A stretch of 64,000 bases of DNA from Escherichia coli (lineage in GTDB: Bacteria; Pseudomonadota; Gammaproteobacteria; Enterobacterales; Enterobacteriaceae): NCBI RefSeq assembly GCF_030013595.1, contig NZ_CP122768.1; one strand, written 5' to 3'. The notes beneath the pieces are model-generated. The model did no database searches. It saw only the letters and a program-made list of their open reading frames with translations, and was not told where the DNA came from. How positions within the stretch are numbered: position 1 is the first letter of the stretch; the number at the start of each line of letters is the position of its first letter. Shown here piece by piece: positions 39,785 through 50,252 of this stretch. Made by a program: the position numbers and the translations under genes.

Positions 39785-40811
39785 TTATATTTTTTCGATC
39801 TCGACCAGATTAGTGTGCTGCGGGTTTCCCTTCGCCAGTGGTGAAGGGCGCAGAGTGGTTAGCGTATTCACACAGCCGCCATGGTCGATTTTATCGCCAG
39901 ACATATTGGCCTCGTGCCAGGCTCCCTGGCCCATAGCGCTAACCCCAGGGAGAATGCGTGGTGTTACTTTGGCTGGTAGCCGAACTTCGCCACGATGGTT
40001 AAACACCCGCACCATATCGCCGTTGGCAATCCCACGTTTCTGTGCATCTATAGGGTTGATCCACACCTCCTGACGGCAGGCTTCCTTCAGGACATCAATA
40101 TTGCCGTAGGTCGAGTGGGTACGGGATTTGTAATGGAAACCAAACAGTTGCAGTGGGAAGGTTCTACGTTCAGGGGAGTCCCAGCCTTCAAAGGTTGAGG
40201 CATAAACTGGCAGTGGGCTTATCACTTCATCTTTTTCCAGTTCCCAGGTACGGGCAATTTCCGCCAGCTTGCTGGAATAAATTTCAATCTTACCGGAAGG
40301 CGTTTTAAGTGGATTTGCCTCGGGGTCGTCACGAAATGCTTTGTAGGCGACAAAATGACCATTGGGATCTTTACGCTTATAGATACCCATTTTTTTCAGT
40401 TCGTCGTAAGACGGTAACGCCGGATCTTTGGCAAGCATTTTGGCGTACAGATGTTGTAACCATTGTTCCTGCGTGCGACCTTCTGTGAACTTTTGATAGA
40501 CGTCAGGTCCAAGACGTTTCGCGACTTCACTCAGGATCCAGTAAATCGGTTTGCGTTCGAATTTTTCGCTGGTGACTGGCTGAAGGAAAATGAGATATCC
40601 CATGTTACCTGCGTAGTCGTTAGGAATAATATCTTCCTGCTCAACGGTCATCAGGTCTGGCAGCAGAATGTCGGCATATTTTGCCGATGAGGTCATAAAG
40701 TTTTCGATGACCACAATCATTTCGCATTTCGATTCGTCCTGCAGAATTTCATGCGTTTTGTTGATGTCAGAATGCTGATTAACCAGGGTATTTCCCGCGT
40801 AGTTCCAGATG
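39785..40811 (-). pseudogene. ynfE: ynfE 3' fragment (codons from about IWNYAGNTL to the C-terminus), separated from its 5' part by a 9.4-kb insertion
   Basis: Translation aligns residue-by-residue with the C-terminal half of YnfF; homology begins exactly at the 11-bp repeat 40801-40811; the track ORF 39785..40951 is a chimera with insert-derived N-terminus. Confidence 0.85.
40801..40811 (+). repeat. left copy of 11-bp direct repeat AGTTCCAGATG (att core or target-site duplication)
   Basis: Identical 11-mer at 50242-50252; joining the flanks restores the in-frame ynfE sequence ...VPIKFIWNYAGNTL... Confidence 0.8.
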
Positions 40812-40876: not shown

Positions 40877-42485
40877 ATGACTGACATTAACTATGATAAT
40901 ACTGTATATCCATCCAGCTCTTTCTCTGGGTCTCCCTATCTGTATGGGCAAGTCTACACCTCAAGTCCTGACACAAGGCTGACACAAATCAATCTACTCA
41001 GCGTAGCTAAGCCTCAGTTAGTCCGTAGAGCCAATGGTCGATATACTATCCGCTTCAGACTCAAGGGACAGACCACACCGTTTCTTTCAGTATCGACCCG
41101 AAGCACAGACAGGAGAGTAGCCACAATGCGTCAGAGAGAGCTTGCAGCCACAGCTAAGGCCTTCATGTTGGATAGGCCTGAAGTCTCACTACAGGAGCTT
41201 ACAGAGCATCTCCGGTCTATGGCTGAGCAGTTCCTGACAGACGCTAGTGACGATTACTGGAATGGACTTGAGGTCGCTACTTTGGTGGACGAGAAGTCCA
41301 ACCTGAAGGAGCTAGCCGCTACGCAAGCCTTGAGTCTGGACCAGCAGAAGGGCATAAGGTTAGCGCTTGAAGTCCTGACCGCAGCACAGCAGAGGGTAGA
41401 TACTGGTGATACGTCCAGTCTAATCAAGCTGATTGGTGGTGGCGTAAGCCAGCTTACTGATGGAGATGACAATAACCTTACTAATAACTCAACTATATGC
41501 GACTCTACGTTGATTCTGAGGAACGAGCAGGGGGTCAGCCCGCAAGTATTCACGAGAGAGCGCCAACCATCTGTAGTTTTTTCAAGCCTAGTGTCCTCAC
41601 TGCTGGCTGAGAAGGTCCAGACCCTGAAGTCCTCCAGCTACAAGGACCTGTCGTCCTCACTGAATACCGTCTCTCGGTTTCTGCCTGAAGATATGGACCT
41701 GATGTCCCGCTCTGAGTGGCTGGCAGTGAGGGACGCTATGCTGGCTGCTGAGGTGAGACCATCGACAATCAACAAGCTGCTGACCAAAGCGAAGATGTGT
41801 CTCGATTATGGCCTGATGAATGGGCAACTTGAGGGCCGCAACCCTATTGAACGGATGAAGCTGACCAAGGATACCGACTCCAAGCGCAGAGCGTTCACAG
41901 ACGAGGAGCTGGAGAGACTTCTGGTCCGTGTTGAGGCTGAGTATCAGTTCACACGACACACGGCTCACACGACCTCTGAGGCCCGTAGATGGGCGTCTCT
42001 GGTGTCTGTGGTCACTGGCGCGAGGTCTGCTGAGGTCTGCCACCTGACTAAACGTGACGTTGTAACCTTGGACAATGGACTGGTCTGTATCGACATCAAT
42101 GAAGATGGGGACGGGAAGTCTGTGAAGAACAAACATTCAGTCCGACTTGTGCCGTTAACCGATGGGGCCTGTGGTTTCAGCCTGAAGTCCTTCCTCAAAT
42201 GGGTAGACACTCAGCCTGCTGATGGTCCCCTCTTTGGTATGACTCCGAGTGCCTACTCTAGTTGGTTTAACTCTAGGGTCCTGACTGAGGCCCTAGGAGA
42301 CGCTGAGAACGTTTCTCCACAGTCTGAGACATTGGCTGGCGACCCGAATGAAAGAGCGTGGAGTCAATCTGGTGGACGCTCAAGGCATCTTAGGTCACAG
42401 CAGTCAGTCCATTACGTATGACCTGTACGGGAAAGGACACGCTGTTGGTAGGCTGGCTGAGGTGCTGAAGACAGCTTTACTTTAA
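40877..42485 (+). pseudogene. tyrosine recombinase/integrase with apparent 1-nt frameshift upstream of box II
   Basis: ORF 40877-42421 contains box I (VVTGARSAEVCHLTKRDV) but ends out of frame; the HSLRHWLATRM...LGHSSQSITYDLYGKGH catalytic His-Arg-His-Tyr region is in another frame (42297-42485). True start is probably downstream of 40877, since arm-type repeats lie at 40968-40987. Confidence 0.6.
40968..40987 (+). repeat. two 11-bp-spaced direct repeats CTGACACAA (putative integrase arm-type sites, left arm)
   Basis: CTGACACAAGG and CTGACACAAAT in tandem; same motif recurs three times at the right end. Confidence 0.5.
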
Positions 42486-42562
42486 GTAGGAAGACCCAAG
42501 GTGGAGACCATATACGGCTTGATGGTTGAGACCTTGGGTCACTGAAGTCTGACTGAAGTTAG

Positions 42563-42603
42563 GGAGGGTGATAATAATCATAATCCCTCCTGACTATAGG
42601 CCC
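42563..42603 (+). promoter_or_regulatory. hairpin (GGAGGG-16 nt-CCCTCC) followed by T7-class promoter-like motif CTGACTATAGGCCC
   Basis: Direct reading of sequence; TATAGG core shared with motifs at 42801-43474. Confidence 0.35.
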
Positions 42604-42644: not shown

Positions 42645-42776
42645 GTCTTATTTAAACTGGTTCCCTAACTCAGGTCCTCCAACTTGGTGTCTTATTTAAA
42701 CTGGTTCCCTAACTCAGGTCCTCCAACTTGGTGTCTTATTTAAACTGGTTCCCTAACTCAGGCCCCTCCAAATTTC
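42645..42776 (+). repeat. three tandem copies of a 44-bp repeat (GTCTTATTTAAACTGGTTCCCTAACTCAGGTCCTCCAACTTGGT)
   Basis: Units start at 42645, 42689 and 42733; first two identical, third diverges in its last 14 nt. Confidence 0.85.
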
Positions 42777-42800
42777 GTTGTCTGTCAGCGACTTAAATAT

Positions 42801-42855
42801 CCCCTCACCTTAGAAGAGTTTAGGGTTCAGACCCTTAACTATCACCTTAGGAGAG
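42801..42855 (+). promoter_or_regulatory. pair of single-subunit phage RNAP promoter-like motifs (CCCCTCACCTTAGAAGAG and AACTATCACCTTAGGAGAG)
   Basis: Resemble SP6/T3-class promoters (…CACTATAGAAGAG / …CCCTCACTAAAGGGAGA); located just upstream of the 166-aa ORF. Confidence 0.35.
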
Positions 42856-42901
42856 ACGGGCCGTCCTCCACCCAATCAAAACCTTAAGAGGAGGACCATA
42901 C

Positions 42902-43402: not shown

Positions 43403-43426
43403 GAGCCGCGCCAGCTCTGGGCTGGA

Positions 43427-43474
43427 ATACCCCCTCACTATAGGGACACCCCCTAAACTATCACTATAGGGGGG
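43427..43474 (+). promoter_or_regulatory. pair of T3/T7-class promoter-like motifs (CCCCCTCACTATAGGGACA and AACTATCACTATAGGGGGGA)
   Basis: First motif matches the T3 promoter core CCCTCACTAAAGGGA at 14 of 15 positions and the T7 core TCACTATAGGGA exactly; no RNAP gene in the element. Confidence 0.45.
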
Positions 43475-43620
43475 ACCAACCTTGCCTCTGCTTCTGATGC
43501 GTCAGAACACGCGAGGTCCTCCCGACATTAAGTATTCTCCTAAGTAATCAAGGCCCGTGACCGCCTCTGACAGACCTCCTGTATCGACCTCCAGCTCGTT
43601 AGCGTTCTTTAGTCGTCTCG

Positions 43621-43628: not shown

Positions 43629-43712
43629 GTAACCGGCTCATTTAAACCGTCTGGTCTGTTTCCTCCGGCTCTACAAAAATAATGTCCATCATTTTTTAAT
43701 GGACACTATCGT

Positions 43713-44360
43713 ATGAAACACCGGACCTGGATCACTGAAGCTTTACGTCTTCACTTTGAAGAACATTTACCCCGGGTTGTGGCCGGGCGTCGCCTGGGTG
43801 TACCAAAATCAACAGTTTGTAGTATGTTCGTGCGCTTTCGGAGAGCTGGCCTTTCGTGGCCTTTGCCCGCAGGCATGTCGGAGCAGGAACTTGATGCCTG
43901 CCTTTACGGACAATTTTCCACGGTACCAGTCGTACGTCCTGAAAGCACCGTTATATCCGAAGCCCCCGTGGTAAAAAAACGTCCCCGGCGGCCCAACTTC
44001 CCTTATGAGTTTAAAATCGCCTTAGTGGAGCAGTCACTGCAGCCCGGAGCCTGTGTGGCGCAGATCGCCCGGGAAAACGGAATCAACGATAACCTGCTCT
44101 TCAACTGGCGCCATCAATACCGGAAAGGTGGCCTGCTGCCTTCCGGAAAAAATATGCCGGCACTGCTTCCCGTGACGTTAACGCCGGAGCCGGATAATAA
44201 AATCCCGGCCCCCGCACAGGAACCAGAGCAGATAAATACACCGTCCGACAGTCTGTGTTGTGAGCTGGTTCTGCCGGCCGGAACTCTCAGGCTTAAAGGT
44301 AAACTGACGCCGGCGTTATTACAGACACTTATCCGCGAAATAAAAGGGAGCAGCCACTGA
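43713..44360 (+). CDS. IS66-family accessory protein (orf1, HTH)
   Basis: 215 aa first ORF of the IS. Confidence 0.8.
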   Translation: MKHRTWITEALRLHFEEHLPRVVAGRRLGVPKSTVCSMFVRFRRAGLSWPLPAGMSEQELDACLYGQFSTVPVVRPESTVISEAPVVKKRPRRPNFPYEFKIALVEQSLQPGACVAQIARENGINDNLLFNWRHQYRKGGLLPSGKNMPALLPVTLTPEPDNKIPAPAQEPEQINTPSDSLCCELVLPAGTLRLKGKLTPALLQTLIREIKGSSH

Positions 44361-44707
44361 TGATATCTCTCCCTGCAGGTTCGCGTATCTGGCTGGTTGC
44401 AGGTATCACCGATATGCGAAATGGCTTTAACGGCCTGGCATCAAAAGTTCAGAACGTCCTGAAGGATGACCCGTTCTCCGGACACCTGTTCATCTTCCGC
44501 GGACGCCGGGGTGACCAGATAAAAGTGTTGTGGGCTGACAGTGACGGACTGTGCCTCTTCACCAAACGCCTGGAGCGGGGCCGCTTCGTCTGGCCAGTCA
44601 CCCGTGACGGCAAGGTGCACCTTACTCCGGCTCAGTTATCCATGCTTCTTGAAGGTATCAACTGGAAGCACCCGAAACGAACGGAACGCGCTGGAATCCG
44701 CATATAA
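44360..44707 (+). CDS. IS66-family Orf2 (TnpB-like)
   Basis: 115 aa MISLPAGSRIWLVAGITDMRNGFNGLA..., typical IS66 orf2; start overlaps orf1 stop. Confidence 0.85.
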   Translation: MISLPAGSRIWLVAGITDMRNGFNGLASKVQNVLKDDPFSGHLFIFRGRRGDQIKVLWADSDGLCLFTKRLERGRFVWPVTRDGKVHLTPAQLSMLLEGINWKHPKRTERAGIRI

Positions 44708-44726
44708 CCCGTTGTAAAGTGAGGAT

Positions 44727-46298
44727 ATGGACACCTCACTTGCTCATGAGAACGCCCGCCTGCGGGCACTGTTGCAGACGCAACAGGACACCATCCGCCA
44801 GATGGCTGAATACAACCGCCTGCTCTCACAGCGGGTGGCGGCTTATGCTTCCGAAATCAACCGGCTGAAGGCGCTGGTTGCGAAACTGCAACGTATGCAG
44901 TTCGGTAAAAGCTCAGAAAAACTTCGTGCAAAAACCGAACGGCAGATACAGGAAGCACAGGAGCGAATCAGCGCACTTCAGGAAGAAATGGCGGAAACGC
45001 TGGGTGAGCAATATGACCCGGTACTGCCATCCGCCCTGCGCCAGTCTTCAGCCCGTAAACCGTTACCGGCCTCACTTCCCCGTGAAACCCGGGTTATCCG
45101 GCCGGAAGAGGAATGCTGTCCTGCCTGTGGTGGTGAACTCAGTTCTCTGGGATGTGATGTGTCAGAGCAACTGGAGCTTATCAGCAGCGCCTTTAAGGTT
45201 ATCGAAACACAACGTCCGAAACAGGCCTGTTGCCGGTGCGACCATATCGTACAGGCACCAGTACCTTCAAAACCCATTGCACGCAGTTATGCCGGAGCGG
45301 GGCTTCTGGCCCATGTTGTCACCGGGAAATATGCAGACCATCTGCCGTTATACCGCCAGTCAGAAATATACCGTCGTCAGGGAGTGGAGCTGAGCCGTGC
45401 CACACTGGGGCGCTGGACAGGTGCTGTTGCTGAACTGCTGGAGCCGCTGTATGACGTCCTGCGCCAGTATGTGCTGATGCCCGGTAAAGTCCATGCTGAT
45501 GATATCCCCGTCCCGGTCCAGGAGCCGGGCAGCGGTAAAACCCGGACAGCCCGGCTGTGGGTCTACGTCCGTGATGACCGTAACGCCGGTTCACAGATGC
45601 CCCCGGCGGTCTGGTTCGCGTACAGTCCGGACCGGAAAGGTATCCATCCACAAAATCACCTGGCCGGTTACAGCGGTGTGCTTCAGGCCGATGCTTACGG
45701 TGGTTACCGGGCGTTATACGAATCCGGCAGAATAACGGAAGCCGCGTGTATGGCTCATGCCCGGAGAAAAATCCACGATGTGCATGCAAGAGCGCCCACC
45801 TACATCACCACGGAAGCCCTGCAGCGTATCGGTGAACTGTATGCCATCGAGGCAGAGGTCCGGGGCTGTTCAGCAGAACAGCGTCTGGCGGCAAGAAAAG
45901 CCAGAGCCGCGCCACTGATGCAGTCACTGTATGACTGGATACAGCAACAGATGAAAACACTGTCGCGTCACTCAGATACGGCAAAAGCGTTCGCATACCT
46001 GCTGAAACAGTGGGATGCACTGAACGTGTACTGCAGTAATGGCTGGGTGGAAATCGACAACAACATCGCAGAGAACGCCTTACGGGGAGTGGCCGTAGGC
46101 CGGAAAAACTGGATGTTCGCGGGTTCCGACAGCGGTGGTGAACATGCGGCGGTGTTGTACTCGCTGATCGGCACATGCCGTCTGAACAATGTGGAGCCAG
46201 AAAAGTGGCTGCGTTACGTCATTGAACATATCCAGGACTGGCCGGCAAACCGGGTACGCGATCTGTTGCCCTGGAAAGTTGATCTGAGCTCTCAGTAA
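44727..46298 (+). CDS. IS66-family transposase (orf3)
   Basis: 523 aa with N-terminal leucine-zipper-like region, CxxC...CxxC zinc finger and DDE region. Confidence 0.85.
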
Positions 46299-46328
46299 AT
46301 ATCAATACGGTTCTGACGAGTCGCTTAC

Positions 46329-46336
46329 GTTAGTAG
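46329..46336 (+). repeat. 8-bp target-site duplication GTTAGTAG (right) of IS66-family copy 1
   Basis: Matches 43621-43628. Confidence 0.8.
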
Positions 46337-46582
46337 CTCGTCTACTCACTACATTGGCTTAAGTCTATCACCGCTCACCATCTGGAGTCCTTACAGCTCG
46401 TCCTGACATGCGGTCTCACCTTATATGCACATGGAGAACATGGCCACTCCAGACCAACACTAATCAACATTAACCCTATTCACTTTCGTTAAGCATTTTT
46501 TGGTGGGTCCGTTTGGATGCATTGAATAGGTGCGGACTCCACGTGGAGACAGAAAGTGCTTTACTAAAGGAGCATCCTTTAT

Positions 46583-46972
46583 ATGACTATTAAATCCATC
46601 GTTATCAACGGTAAGACCATCCTGTCTACACCTAACGCCATCAATGAGGGTGTCTGGTTCGACATGCTTGAGGTCCATCAAGCTGCTGGCTTGCCTGCTA
46701 ACAAGACGTTCTCACAGTGGCGCAGCCGACAGTCTCGTGCATTAGAAGAGGCTGGAGAGGTGTCGTTTGACAGTGTACAGAAGACCCTGTGTGGCAGCTT
46801 TGTGGCAGTGCTGGCCTACCTTATGTGGGCGGACCTTACTCTCTGGCTGGCGGTGGTTCGTTACGTTGCGTCTGAGACTATCGGCGTCCTGCCTGACCGC
46901 TTCAAGTCTATCGACGGTGATAACCCCGAGTTAGAAATGTCAGAGGATAACAGCGAGTGGGAGGACTTCTAA
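46583..46972 (+). CDS. KilA-N domain protein (129 aa)
   Basis: N-terminal pattern (INGKTI...NEGVWFDMLEV...GLPANKTFSQW) and hydrophobic WxxxLxxxL segment typical of KilA-N/APSES DNA-binding domains. Confidence 0.5.
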   Translation: MTIKSIVINGKTILSTPNAINEGVWFDMLEVHQAAGLPANKTFSQWRSRQSRALEEAGEVSFDSVQKTLCGSFVAVLAYLMWADLTLWLAVVRYVASETIGVLPDRFKSIDGDNPELEMSEDNSEWEDF

Positions 46973-46973
46973 G

Positions 46974-47714
46974 ATGACCATGAGCCAGCTTGAAGCATTA
47001 CCTATCGTCATCGAGGGTCATTCATTCATCTGCAACGACCAGCGCATGTGGAACCTGAACGAGATTCACCGAGTGTTAGGTCTTCCAGCAAGCAAGATGC
47101 CGTCTGAGTGGAATAACAAGATTCGCACACAACTTGACCGCTCCGGAAATTTCCGGACCGTGAATGGTGACGGCGGTGGTACATGGGCGACCGAGGCTGG
47201 GACCGTGGCTTATGCTATGTGGGTCTCTACAGATTTCTACCTGATGGTCATCAATGCTTTCATCTTTATGCGTAACGACGCAATCGTCCGAGAGCGTGTA
47301 GCGGTCAAACAGGCTGACGAGGCTAACGCTAACCTCTCCATCGCAGCACCTAAGGCAGACATCTTTGACGGTCGTCTGACCAATGGTGGCTCTGTTCCGT
47401 GGAACTGGGCGTGTAAATCTTTGGGTCTTGCCCCGATGAAACTGAAAGAGGGCTTGAAGCGCTCCGGTAAGTTCGTCCAGAAGTGGAACCCTGACAGTTA
47501 CGCCGACGAGCTTCGACCTCAGGAGAAGGCGTTCAGTATTGGACTATTCGTCACTAAGTCAGTCATGGGTAAAGACACATGGCAGGTGACAGCTAAAGGC
47601 TACGCATGGATGCAGGGGAACGCCCAGAAGTGGAGAGAGCTAATAGCTGATGGTGACCGCTTAAAGGCTGCTGAGCGTCGAGCACAGAAGCGTCTTAACC
47701 GTGGAGGTAAGTAG
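46974..47714 (+). CDS. KilA-N domain protein with C-terminal extension (246 aa)
   Basis: Paralogous to upstream ORF (IEGHSFICNDQRMWNLNEIHRVLGLPASKMPSEW... GTWATEAGTVAYAMWVSTDFYLMV). Confidence 0.5.
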   Translation: MTMSQLEALPIVIEGHSFICNDQRMWNLNEIHRVLGLPASKMPSEWNNKIRTQLDRSGNFRTVNGDGGGTWATEAGTVAYAMWVSTDFYLMVINAFIFMRNDAIVRERVAVKQADEANANLSIAAPKADIFDGRLTNGGSVPWNWACKSLGLAPMKLKEGLKRSGKFVQKWNPDSYADELRPQEKAFSIGLFVTKSVMGKDTWQVTAKGYAWMQGNAQKWRELIADGDRLKAAERRAQKRLNRGGK

Positions 47715-47716
47715 TC

Positions 47717-47941
47717 ATGGCTATGATTGACCCTCGTACACCTATCGGCAAAGCGACCCTTCGTTACCGTGGTCTGCCTACACGTCATCTGCTGTCCCTG
47801 CTGAGACTTGGAGTCGAAGACCCCGAACGCCCGTACTACAGTCGAGACGAGCTAATAGCTATGTTGGTGGACCGTGATTTAGACAATCAGTTACGCCGAG
47901 CCTTTGCGAAGTCTAGCGCAGCTAGGGAACTGGAGTCCTGA
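47717..47941 (+). CDS. hypothetical protein (74 aa)
   Basis: ORF tightly coupled to upstream gene (3-nt gap). Confidence 0.4.
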   Translation: MAMIDPRTPIGKATLRYRGLPTRHLLSLLRLGVEDPERPYYSRDELIAMLVDRDLDNQLRRAFAKSSAARELES

Positions 47942-48146
47942 ACCTTATGGGGCAGAAAAACCGCCGCATAAACCTATCGTCTGCTGACCGAAGTTTCGAC
48001 GCATTGAGCCAGACGGAAAAGTTTTCCTGCTGGTAAACCACCTTAATTTAAACACCTTTTGAGAATGACCGATGCGGGGAGACCCGTAGGCATAACTGTG
48101 TCTGCGATACCGATAGTTCTCACCTTCTCAATAGGAGTACTACCTT

Positions 48147-48638
48147 ATGTTATTCAACAACAACGACTGGAAACTATCAGTCACCGACATCAATCCCTAT
48201 GAAAATACTGTGAGTCTGGACGGTCAGTCCTATCCGCTGTCTCTGGCGATTAAGACCCTGATTCCGGGCTACCTGTCAGGCTTACCGTCCACCAGCCGCG
48301 AGGCGATGGAGTTACTGGAAGCTCTGGCTGAAGCTGGCGTGTCCATTGGCAACTTCTTCAGTAATGACCTGATGACCGCCTATGGTCGCCGCCAGCAGAA
48401 CAAGCGAGCCGAAGCTGAGCGTATTGCTAAAGAGCAGCGCATTCAGGCTGAGCGTATGCGTGAAGAGAACATGACTGATGCAGAGTGGCAGAAAGAGCTA
48501 CAGCGCCGTGAACAGGTCAAAGCTGAACGCCGGACCTATGGTGAGCACCTCCGCAGTGCTACCCATTCCGCTGGGCGCTCCCGTGCTTCTATGGTCGCTG
48601 ACATTGAGTCCACGGACAACTGGATGGACAGCCTCTAA
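48147..48638 (+). CDS. hypothetical coiled-coil protein (163 aa)
   Basis: C-terminal half highly charged and heptad-like (RRQQNKRAEAERIAKEQRIQAERMREENMTDAEWQKELQRREQVKAERR). Confidence 0.5.
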   Translation: MLFNNNDWKLSVTDINPYENTVSLDGQSYPLSLAIKTLIPGYLSGLPSTSREAMELLEALAEAGVSIGNFFSNDLMTAYGRRQQNKRAEAERIAKEQRIQAERMREENMTDAEWQKELQRREQVKAERRTYGEHLRSATHSAGRSRASMVADIESTDNWMDSL

Positions 48639-48704
48639 GACACAGACACACAAGTGGTCCTGACCTGATGTCGGGACCCACAGTATCCAAACTAATTTAG
48701 GAGA

Positions 48705-49700
48705 TTGATTATTATGACGATTAAAGACGCTTTCCAGTTCGGCATTGAGCCAGTACGTATCAGCGACACCGACAACATTCAGATTAACGAAGGTTTGCCA
48801 ACTAACGCAGACCCGCAGGTCTATGCCCTCCAGTTAGCTAAGACGGTTAAGGCTATGCTGAACGGTGTACTTAAAGACGCTCAAGAGAACATCCCGTTCC
48901 CTGTAGAAGTCCTGCCGACCCGCAATAGCCTGCCTACTCCAATCATTGCTCACACTCTGGCTGATCGCTCTGTGGTCGTTCCTGTCCGTGGTGGTAAGCG
49001 ACCTGAAGTCGTGACCGTTCCGTCTGGACAAGAAATCGTGGTCGAACCAATCGAGCAGGCTATTCTCATCTCTGAGCAGACCAAGCTCTGGGACGCCAAG
49101 TCATCCACCGGATTCACTCAGGGCACACTTCAGCAGGACGCTATGAACATCTGTGAGAATGTGGTCCGTACCATCAACGCTCGCATGGTCGACGTTCTGG
49201 AGTCCTCCAAACTGTTGAAGACCGTAGAGCTGCCAGTCCTGACTGGAAGCCTGACCACTAAGGCAGACGCTATCATGGACGCTCTGTTTGAGAACACCGA
49301 GTCCTCTTTCGGCTCTGAAGTGTCTGATTACGGCATCATCGCCCATGAGTCCCAACTGAAAGCGCTGTCCCGTCTGGCAGCTAAACAGGGCTTCTCTGGT
49401 GGAGACGCTATCGTGGATATGCTGGGTACCGACATCGCCTATTACAACGGTGAAGACAAGGGTGTATTCATGCTGGCTAAACGCTTCACGGCCCTGAGCT
49501 TCGGCTGCTTCCGTCACGACGGTGAGAATATTACGGTCGTCCTTTCACGTGATGGCGACTCTCAGTCCCACGACTTGGAAATCCTCGGTAAAGTGTTCGT
49601 TGTCGCTGAAGCTGCTACGACCATCAAGATGGGCACTGGCTCAGCTACTGCCGTCCTGCCTGTAGTCAAACGCCTGAAGTTCACCAAGACCGAAGCGTAA
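48705..49700 (+). CDS. hypothetical protein (331 aa), possible structural/morphogenetic protein
   Basis: Largest non-integrase ORF of the element; follows the coiled-coil ORF; AGGAG Shine-Dalgarno upstream; no motif I can assign. Confidence 0.5.
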   Translation: MIIMTIKDAFQFGIEPVRISDTDNIQINEGLPTNADPQVYALQLAKTVKAMLNGVLKDAQENIPFPVEVLPTRNSLPTPIIAHTLADRSVVVPVRGGKRPEVVTVPSGQEIVVEPIEQAILISEQTKLWDAKSSTGFTQGTLQQDAMNICENVVRTINARMVDVLESSKLLKTVELPVLTGSLTTKADAIMDALFENTESSFGSEVSDYGIIAHESQLKALSRLAAKQGFSGGDAIVDMLGTDIAYYNGEDKGVFMLAKRFTALSFGCFRHDGENITVVLSRDGDSQSHDLEILGKVFVVAEAATTIKMGTGSATAVLPVVKRLKFTKTEA

Positions 49701-49844
49701 GACCAATGGGTAAGAGGTAAGTCTGGACTGAATATCAGCAGGACTTCAGGTGGTGGCCTGTCACTGTGATTAACTAACTACGGTCTGGACCAATGGTCTG
49801 GGCCTTATTACTGGTATGGTAGTATACAGGCGAAGGAGGACCCA

Positions 49845-50000
49845 ATGTCTATGACTTCCGCAGACCTAAGGTCCCTCCTGACTCTGGTCTATAAACTCGT
49901 GTTCCTCTCTGTGGGTCTCTACATGGTTCTCTCTGGTCGACTCGGTGTGGATGTGTTCGACACTCTGTCTAAGGCTGTGGGTGGACTTCTAGGTCCTTAG
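49845..50000 (+). CDS. small single-pass membrane protein (51 aa)
   Basis: ATG with AGGAGGA Shine-Dalgarno; MSMTSADLRSLLTLVYKLVFLSVGLYMVLSGRLGVDVFDTLSKAVGGLLGP; below ORF-track cutoff. Confidence 0.4.
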   Translation: MSMTSADLRSLLTLVYKLVFLSVGLYMVLSGRLGVDVFDTLSKAVGGLLGP

Positions 50001-50153
50001 GTTTGGACTCACAGTGGGACCGATGATTTCTGACAGAAAAATGTGAATGACCATCTAATACATTAAGCCAGCAGACTTCCCCCCATAGTCCCGCCTCAAG
50101 TCCAGACCGAGGCCACCGGGGGTCCTGACCAGCCGTCTAGACATCCCGTCTAA

Positions 50154-50186
50154 TGACACAAGTCTGGCACAAAGCCTGACACAAAG
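50154..50186 (+). repeat. three 11-bp-spaced direct repeats TGACACAAG / TGGCACAAAG / TGACACAAAG (putative arm-type sites, right arm)
   Basis: Same motif and orientation as 40968-40987 at the opposite end of the element. Confidence 0.5.
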
Positions 50187-50241
50187 TCCTTGACTCAATG
50201 CAGGACCTCAGGCCTACTAAGGGTCCGCTTCAAGTCCTTGA

Positions 50242-50252
50242 AGTTCCAGATG
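50242..50252 (+). repeat. right copy of 11-bp direct repeat AGTTCCAGATG
   Basis: Identical to 40801-40811. Confidence 0.8.

Follow-up and report, generated by a model that had tools for sequence, protein, structure and literature searches.

The stretch of Escherichia coli DNA considered here (64,000 nucleotides (nt) of contig NZ_CP122768.1, assembly GCF_030013595.1; hereafter, the window) is chromosomal and contains a ynfE gene split by a 9.4-kb insertion. This integrative element holds two adjacent open reading frames (ORFs), g1 and g2, which are the subject of this article. The first (46583..46972, + strand) encodes a protein of 129 amino acids (aa) made of a diverged KilA-N domain (approximately residues 1-100) and a disordered acidic tail (residues 111-129); the second (46974..47714, + strand) encodes a 246-aa protein in which a KilA-N domain (approximately residues 10-110) is followed by a probable KilAC/ANT domain (approximately residues 116-242) and by a basic C-terminal end (...KRLNRGGK). 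Within the element the order is integrase, variable gene, IS66 insertion, g1, g2, g3, g4, g5 and a 51-aa hydrophobic ORF.

The two KilA-N proteins

An AAAGGAG Shine-Dalgarno sequence lies 8 nt upstream of g1 and, since the ATG of g2 follows the stop codon of g1 by a single base, translation of the two genes is probably coupled. The premise of the initial annotation of this locus, namely that the two ORFs share an N-terminal KilA-N domain, is borne out by direct alignment of the two proteins with BLASTP (28% identity over 90 aa, E=5e-9) and by profile searches, which do recover KilA-N in g1: a hidden Markov model (HMM) of the N-domains of the g2 orthologues of other organisms, from which the window copy was excluded, matches g1 with 32.8 bits (E=1.4e-11), and hhalign joins the g1 and g2 families with 98.6% probability (E=9e-16). 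The Pfam search then suggested as a check succeeded for g2, which exceeds the gathering threshold of KilA-N (PF04383; 25.1 vs 23.8 bits, residues 22-98), but not for g1, for which nothing was found in Pfam (E<=1), PHROG, NCBIfam, PADLOC or PDB sequence searches. The assignment of g1 to KilA-N is therefore based on its profile link to g2 and on its structure model, the protein having no Pfam or PHROG match of its own. In the predicted structure the domain of g1 is modeled with confidence, whereas the predicted local distance difference test (pLDDT) score falls below 50 for residues 111-129; by structure comparison, the fold appears to match the DNA-binding domains of fungal APSES/Mbp1 and of Bqt4, which belong to the KilA-N superfamily. 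KilA-N is also matched by 27 of the 34 g2 orthologues and, with 22.7 bits, by the remote relative P0174.

The "about 120 extra residues" formerly noticed at the C-terminus of g2 do exist and probably correspond to KilAC/ANT; what that description missed is that g1 has a 35-aa tail of its own. The match of g2 to ANT/KilAC (PF03374, residues 120-214) reaches 22.0 bits against a gathering threshold of 25.3, and 13 of the 34 orthologues match the family at E<=0.01, the best of them at 1e-7, and the region is covered by the alignment with P1 KilA; g1, which lacks KilAC, is not matched by an HMM of the C-domain of the g2 orthologues. Conservation is strong in the g2 family, whose AYAMWVS...F core does not vary; 232 homologues of g2 were found, and the protein falls into PHROG 129 and 63 ("transcriptional regulator" and "anti-repressor Ant"). 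The idea that g2 could be an excision factor was set aside as unlikely, since g2 is kept in an element (L002) that has a serine recombinase.

The distribution of g1 is far narrower than that of g2: it is confined to E. coli and Citrobacter, every related element outside them lacking it, and an exhaustive search of 1.8 billion representative proteins returned 14 matches, most of them fragments of the same protein and two of them short KilA-N relatives with 32-34% identity. The two alleles of g1 that were compared differ by 9 synonymous and 8 non-synonymous codon changes; since the replacements in the tail are conservative and leave it acidic, g1 appears to be under constraint. A recent tandem duplication was rejected as the origin of the pair because g1 is no closer to its neighbor than to distant g2 orthologues, the identity being approximately the same with either (19-28%). 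To speak of a "duplicated pair", as was done initially, was thus an overstatement: g1 is a highly diverged addition, specific to its lineage and placed in a slot that is filled elsewhere by unrelated proteins. Three candidate remote homologues of g1 (P0002, P0012 and P0013) were not used as independent evidence because they are in-frame g1/g2 chimeras; their junctions fall at microhomologies of 2-3 residues, and they may be either template-switch recombinants or assembly artefacts.

Putative promoters and hairpin of T7-like type

Between the variable gene and the IS66 insertion lie two tandem sequences that have the characteristics of promoters for a T7-group phage RNA polymerase (43423..43476, + strand), P_a (AATACCCCCTCACTATAGGGACA) and P_b (CCTAAACTATCACTATAGGGGGGAC). 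A 19-nt portion of P_b (CTAAACTATCACTATAGGG) is shared with the promoters annotated as phi10 and phi6.5 in the Kayfunavirus EcoDS1, and matches of the P_b type occur at 1023 places in 217 records of T7-like phages. A second putative pair, AAATATCCCCTCACCTTAGAAGAG and CCTTAACTATCACCTTAGGAGAG (42793..42857, + strand), precedes the variable gene, and the latter of its members resembles EcoDS1 phi4; across both pairs, two sequence classes can be distinguished, CCCCTCAC... and AACTATCAC.... Promoters of the same type occupy the corresponding position in all the E. coli relatives that were examined (L001, L020, L022, L023, L026 and L027), and the distant elements L002-L004 have CATGCGACTCACTAAAGGGAGA instead, upstream of g2.

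A search of the + strand between 46250 and 50250 revealed no sigma-70-like promoter. The sequence ACTCACTACA at 46344, which had been considered as an additional promoter, was discarded, being within chance expectation and not conserved in L020. Two to three tandem units of ~75 nt containing TTGACA occur upstream of the 122-aa variable gene in sister elements (L001, 13130-13400; L020, 6640-6900; L023, 5250-5420) and recall the early host promoters that T7-like genomes have in tandem at their left end.

The second signal that ties the element to T7-like phages is a 29-nt hairpin (GGGAGGGTGATAATAATCATAATCCCTCC; 42562..42590, + strand), which is a copy of a Kayfunavirus right-end site. Its identity is 96-100% to a site that Kayfunavirus genomes have in single copy, ~450-500 bp from their right end; 239 phage records were matched at 241 places in all, nearly all of them having one place each. 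With phiYIO1-1 the agreement extends to 32 of 32 nt (E 2e-7) and with EcoDS1, in which the counterpart is located between phiOR and gene 19.5, the stem displays a compensatory change from T-A to G-C. All seven E. coli elements that were checked have the hairpin (7/7), which may be a mimic of a signal for packaging or for the processing of concatemers.

On account of its Kayfunavirus-type promoters, of the right-end hairpin of the presumptive helper and of a gene (g5; 48705..49700, + strand) encoding a 331-aa capsid/encapsulin-like protein with the HK97 fold, the element has the appearance of a satellite of T7-like phages or, at the least, of an island that responds to them as helpers, and the same three features strongly back the original suggestion that it depends on a helper of this group. 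Two other parts of that suggestion have not fared as well. The pair is not "directly downstream" of the promoters, the 2.7-kb IS66 and ~410 nt of leader being interposed, and a "helper-sensing" role for the KilA-N proteins is not supported, the specificity of the promoters being the better explanation: exact promoters of the helper RNA polymerase precede the operon and none of the sigma-70 type was found on the + strand from 46250 to 50250, so that sensing would need no protein sensor and the likely sensor is the promoters themselves.

The C-terminal tail of g1

The 35-aa tail of g1 (...GDNPELEMSEDNSEWEDF), absent from g2, has as its last residues ...EMSEDNSEWEDF (SEDNSEWEDF), and is an acidic C-terminus, predicted to be disordered, ending with Asp-Phe. 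This kind of ending resembles that of two replisome proteins of the T7 group, gp4 and gp2.5, whose C-termini are ...SSSWEDPDPDF and ...GGDYDF in EcoDS1 and ...STDWSNDTDF and ...EADEDGDF in T7. In EcoDS1, gp2.5 and gp4 are the only proteins, of 41, to end in this way. Among the 3020 ORFs of at least 40 aa found in all the sequences compared, just 16 end with [DE]F, of which six are proteins encoded in the slot described below and two are gp4 and gp2.5. Furthermore, an allele of g1 whose linker is 10 residues shorter retains the terminal WEDF. It has been shown that the acidic, Phe-terminated tail of T7 gp2.5 contacts the gp5 DNA polymerase and the helicase (PMC4124056, PMC12339929).

The likeness concerns the tail and not the body of the proteins, for g1 has a KilA-N domain, unlike the helicase (gp4) and the OB fold (gp2.5); what g1 has in common with them, including a Trp within the tail, is a short linear motif and not homology.

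A swap slot downstream of a conserved leader

The place occupied by g1 and g2 is a swap site at which at least six gene combinations are found in the ynfE elements. The first combination (V1), g1 followed by g2, is that of the window, L001 and L026. In the second (V2; L027, 3734-4231) a weakly Rha-like 165-aa protein precedes an identical g2, and in the third (V3; L031, 3697-4194, and L033) the Rha-like protein stands alone. The fourth (V4; L023, 6234-7325, and L029) has no g2 and consists of a 363-aa protein annotated as "AP2" that ends with ...GWMENDF; the fifth (V5; L028, 4748-5753, and L032) combines a 171-aa protein ending with ...GGASYDF with a 166-aa protein having a KilA-N domain only; and the sixth (V6; L019 and L020, 7983-8741) is a g2 variant with a different C-domain. 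Pfam matches to the N-terminal region of the Rha-like protein remain below threshold and no Pfam match was obtained for the "AP2" protein. Three unrelated proteins that occupy the first position thus converge on the same aromatic-acidic-DF ending. A basic ending, KRLxRxGG(K/L), recurs in g2, in the Rha-like 165-aa protein and in the g2 variant of L020.

Upstream of the slot is an untranslated leader of ~250 nt (46329..46582, + strand), which is conserved, with 71-99% identity, among elements that have different slot genes. No significant RNA fold and no Rfam family were found for it, and neither the leader nor the right end of the element has notable similarity to phage genomes.

Remainder of the element and its relatives

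The element is bordered by two identical 11-bp cores (AGTTCCAGATG) located within ynfE, attL at 40801..40811 and attR at 50242..50252, and integrative elements are known to use this gene as a target (PMC7192596). The tyrosine integrase (40877..42421, + strand; region 40877-42486) has a frameshift near 42312 that puts its catalytic C-terminus (LHSLRHW...HSSQSITYDLY) out of frame, so that the window copy probably cannot excise on its own. The IS66-family insertion (43629..46328, + strand; three ORFs, 2.7 kb), flanked by an 8-bp target duplication (GTTAGTAG), is co-oriented with the phage-type promoters and lies in the leader, between these and g1; because it separates the promoters from g1 and because the integrase is frameshifted, this copy of the element is probably crippled. 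Other copies of the island have IS3, IS21 or IS66 insertions elsewhere (L022, L026, L031-L033), and relatives free of insertion sequences, such as L001 (strain PM4-5, CP096834), measure ~6.6-6.7 kb; strain EC100 is another with an intact element.

Downstream of g2 are g3, a conserved gene for a 74-aa protein (47717..47941, + strand), and g4 (48147..48638, + strand), encoding a 163-aa protein of the DUF6971 family with a basic coiled-coil region and a Trp-containing C-terminal end, for which we infer a scaffold-like role. After g5, a terminator-like hairpin (49782-49804) precedes the 51-aa hydrophobic ORF (49845-50000, + strand), which has a strong ribosome-binding site (GAAGGAGG).

Several repeated sequences were also noticed. 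GGTCCTGAC occurs three times (at 42277, 48656 and 50121), always on the + strand and always within the element, compared to 0.28 occurrences expected in the window, and GGWCC-rich strings are frequent in the non-coding parts of the element. A 44-nt unit is repeated 2.9 times with 97% identity at 42645-42771 of the window and is present in 1-3 copies in sister elements; these repeats were rejected as binding sites for g1 or g2, for their copy number follows the region of the variable gene and not the slot variant. Two phage signals proved uninformative: ATCTGTT, the class II pause signal of T7, occurs in the element only inside the IS66 insertion, and the sole match in the element to the EcoDS1 concatemer-junction octamer is inside the integrase gene.

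Outside E. coli, the g2-g3-g4-g5 block recurs in Pectobacterium, Pantoea, Serratia and Pseudomonas, linked to an integrase or, in one case (L002), to a serine recombinase. Integrative elements of ~6.7 kb carry this operon in Enterobacterales and Pseudomonas and, from E. coli to Pseudomonas, g2 is its conserved first gene, located after a long non-coding region; in the members from Enterobacterales, sequences that match promoters for T7-group phage RNA polymerases precede the operon. Many of the relatives are stand-alone contigs of 5.9-7.8 kb, which is approximately the size of a whole element (L002, L003, L004, L011 and L014, from metagenomes and isolate assemblies); these can be taken at most as indirect hints of mobilization in helper-derived particles. 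Neither L002 nor the other loci scanned had overlapping ends that would indicate circularity, except for 13 nt in L011.

Possible role of g1 and g2

The role that we propose, giving it a probability of about 0.4, is that g1 and g2 are infection-induced DNA-binding effectors of a satellite-like element of T7-like phages, g1 tethering the replisome of the helper or serving as a decoy for it, and that the pair is not the sensor of infection. As suggested by the identity of the promoters, the RNA polymerase of the infecting helper would transcribe g1 and g2, the transcripts of g1-g5 beginning at the G of ...CACTATAGGG. The g2 protein would bind DNA as the core organizer or early effector of replication, packaging or takeover, and the KilA-N domain of g1 would sit on DNA or pair with g2 in the manner of an accessory adaptor. 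The tail of g1 would mimic the C-terminal tails with which gp4 and gp2.5 of the helper dock on the phage DNA polymerase and, by means of this tail, g1 would either recruit the helper replisome to the element or decoy the replisome from the helper. The "helper interference" envisaged in the initial annotation is accordingly plausible, and the likeness of the g1 tail to those of gp4 and gp2.5 would point to the helper replisome as its object.

A more general proposition, of which we are doubtful, is that these elements constitute a hitherto undescribed group of miniature satellites of virulent T7-like phages, induced via the RNA polymerase of the helper, in which g1, the "AP2" protein and the 171-aa protein are swappable DNA-binding bodies equipped with a mimic of the gp4/gp2.5 tail that either plugs the DNA of the element into the helper DNA polymerase or blocks this enzyme.

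Several considerations weigh against the role proposed for the pair. The promoters were identified from their sequence alone and no promoter could be defined in the Pseudomonas members. The likeness of the tails is compositional and has no rigorous E-value, and E. coli SSB also has an acidic tail ending with Phe, for which reason the target of the g1 tail could be a host protein. An acidic-DF tail is absent from half of the slot variants (V2, V3 and V6), so that the function of this tail would be accessory, and g2 does not occur in the "AP2" variant or in those having only the Rha-like protein, from which it follows that g2 is not indispensable for the operon. Furthermore, residues that do not vary within the g2 family are lost in g1 (GTWATE having become LCGSF), so that this protein may no longer be able to bind DNA. 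Origins of the T7 type need only a phage promoter, and a recruiter of the replisome may be unnecessary. Finally, each functional step of the scheme is one that we infer from the sequence.

Alternative functions and known counterparts

A close known counterpart of g2 is KilA of phage P1, named and annotated for host killing ("putative host killing protein"), and it is from this relationship that one of the alternatives arises: g2, with or without g1, could be toxic like KilA and be transcribed only by the polymerase of an infecting T7-like phage, so that the early death of the cell protects the population and the element is mainly a defense island. The two proteins are co-linear, having the same order of KilA-N and KilAC, with 27.5% identity by tblastn over residues 9-213 of g2 (83%; E 3e-7), and their genes are alike in standing at the start of a lytic-phase operon behind a tightly controlled promoter, this being the C1-repressed promoter in the case of kilA and the phage RNA polymerase promoters in that of g2. 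The apparent gating of expression by helper promoters would suit abortive infection. However, 27% identity to P1 KilA does not transfer a phenotype, and the weak PADLOC match to PDC-S22 (18.5 bits) that could be invoked in favor of a defense function spans only 42 residues. The operons are also different, for kilA precedes repL and oriL whereas g2 precedes the genes of the 74-aa, DUF6971 and HK97-fold proteins, no Rep family being found downstream of it, and g1 has no counterpart in P1. The hairpin of the helper packaging region and the genes for the HK97-fold and scaffold-like proteins would also make no sense in a pure suicide module. We regard this function as unlikely.

That KilA-N is the DNA-binding domain of viral regulators, with a fold apparently like those of Mbp1 and Bqt4, is compatible not only with effectors acting as proposed above but also with transcription factors that reprogram the helper by binding its promoters or genes (e.g., the capsid or replication operons), g1 modulating g2 through the shared domain. 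Such an activity is not without precedent, for CapR, a DNA-binding protein of the satellite PLE, the phage-inducible chromosomal island-like element, represses the capsid genes of ICP1 (PMC8096241), and the exchange in the slot of KilA-N, weakly Rha-like and "AP2" N-regions is what one would expect of a specificity determinant in an arms race. On the other hand, apart from the promoters and the hairpin, the element and the helper were not found to have any candidate operator in common, the single-subunit polymerase of the T7 type is not known to have classical activators, and the acidic-DF tails would be left unexplained. We regard this function, too, as unlikely.

A parallel for the proposed interaction with the replisome is offered by the same Vibrio cholerae satellites. 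RepA of PLE, an origin-binding protein that is induced by a lytic helper and lets the satellite use the replication machinery of the latter (PMC7145576), is the closest functional analogue that was found for g1 and g2, with the differences that its fold is RepA_N and that the role of g1/g2 is a putative one; no iterons to which g1 or g2 would bind were recognized here. As to the remaining satellites, neither promoters of the T7 type nor a Kayfunavirus helper are described for the P4-like, PICI (phage-inducible chromosomal island), cf-PICI (capsid-forming PICI), PLE and PICMI (phage-inducible chromosomal minimalist island) groups in the literature searched. With ~6.7 kb the present element is smaller than most known satellites, and no AlpA/Xis, primase or replication gene and no terminase small subunit was found in it.

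Still less can be said for the pair acting as an antirepressor or helper sensor that induces the element once its KilAC/ANT domain has inactivated a repressor or recognized a protein of the helper. Several known satellites (SaPI, the Staphylococcus aureus pathogenicity islands, and PICI) are induced by antirepressors, and the ANT/KilAC match and the PHROG 63 label of g2 are in keeping with it. Nevertheless, the antirepressor function attributed to the pair in the initial annotation has turned out to be poorly supported: searches with Pfam, PHROG, NCBIfam and PADLOC revealed no repressor-like gene in the element, the promoters are those of the helper polymerase and no sigma-70-like promoter that could be derepressed was found on the + strand from 46250 to 50250, and the position of g1 and g2 is downstream, not upstream, of the switch. 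T7-like phages as a rule encode no repressor, none is annotated in the helper-type genome of EcoDS1, and the T7-like genus to which the matching helpers belong is lytic. This makes the antirepressor quite improbable.

Least probable of all is that g1 is a decaying, functionless KilA-N remnant and that only g2 matters, for, in spite of its very narrow distribution, the lack of a Pfam family, the loss of motifs invariant in g2 and its replacement in L027, where an unrelated gene precedes the identical g2, the ORF of g1 is intact in all alleles seen and has a strong Shine-Dalgarno sequence and a probable translational coupling, its domain is modeled with confidence, its 9 synonymous and 8 non-synonymous differences with conservative changes in the tail indicate constraint, WEDF is kept when the linker shrinks and the same kind of ending is found on unrelated slot proteins.

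Significance

What was already known of this locus is that KilA-N/KilAC proteins are common and that g2 bears the label "KilA-N domain-containing protein" assigned by PGAP, the Prokaryotic Genome Annotation Pipeline. What is new is that g1 can be recognized as a KilA-N protein, that it has a replisome-like tail and the slot proteins have convergent endings, and that the pair is located behind promoters for a helper polymerase, in a family of elements of which, as of any satellite of T7-like phages, a literature search yielded no description.

KilA-N/KilAC proteins are among the commonest and least understood "regulators" of phages, and we know of no established mechanism even for P1 KilA itself. 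The cis-acting signals described here tie one such protein, the product of the lead gene of its operon, to helpers that are easily handled, namely K1F and T7-like coliphages of the EcoDS1 type, and the tail of g1 suggests a concrete partner, the DNA polymerase of the helper. If the proposed tail mimicry is correct, this would be the first case in which a satellite mimics a replisome tail, a mimicry that would explain the ending shared by the unrelated slot proteins and would represent a new route by which satellites tap or poison the replisome of their helper; the surrounding element, in turn, would extend satellite biology to the strictly lytic T7 group.

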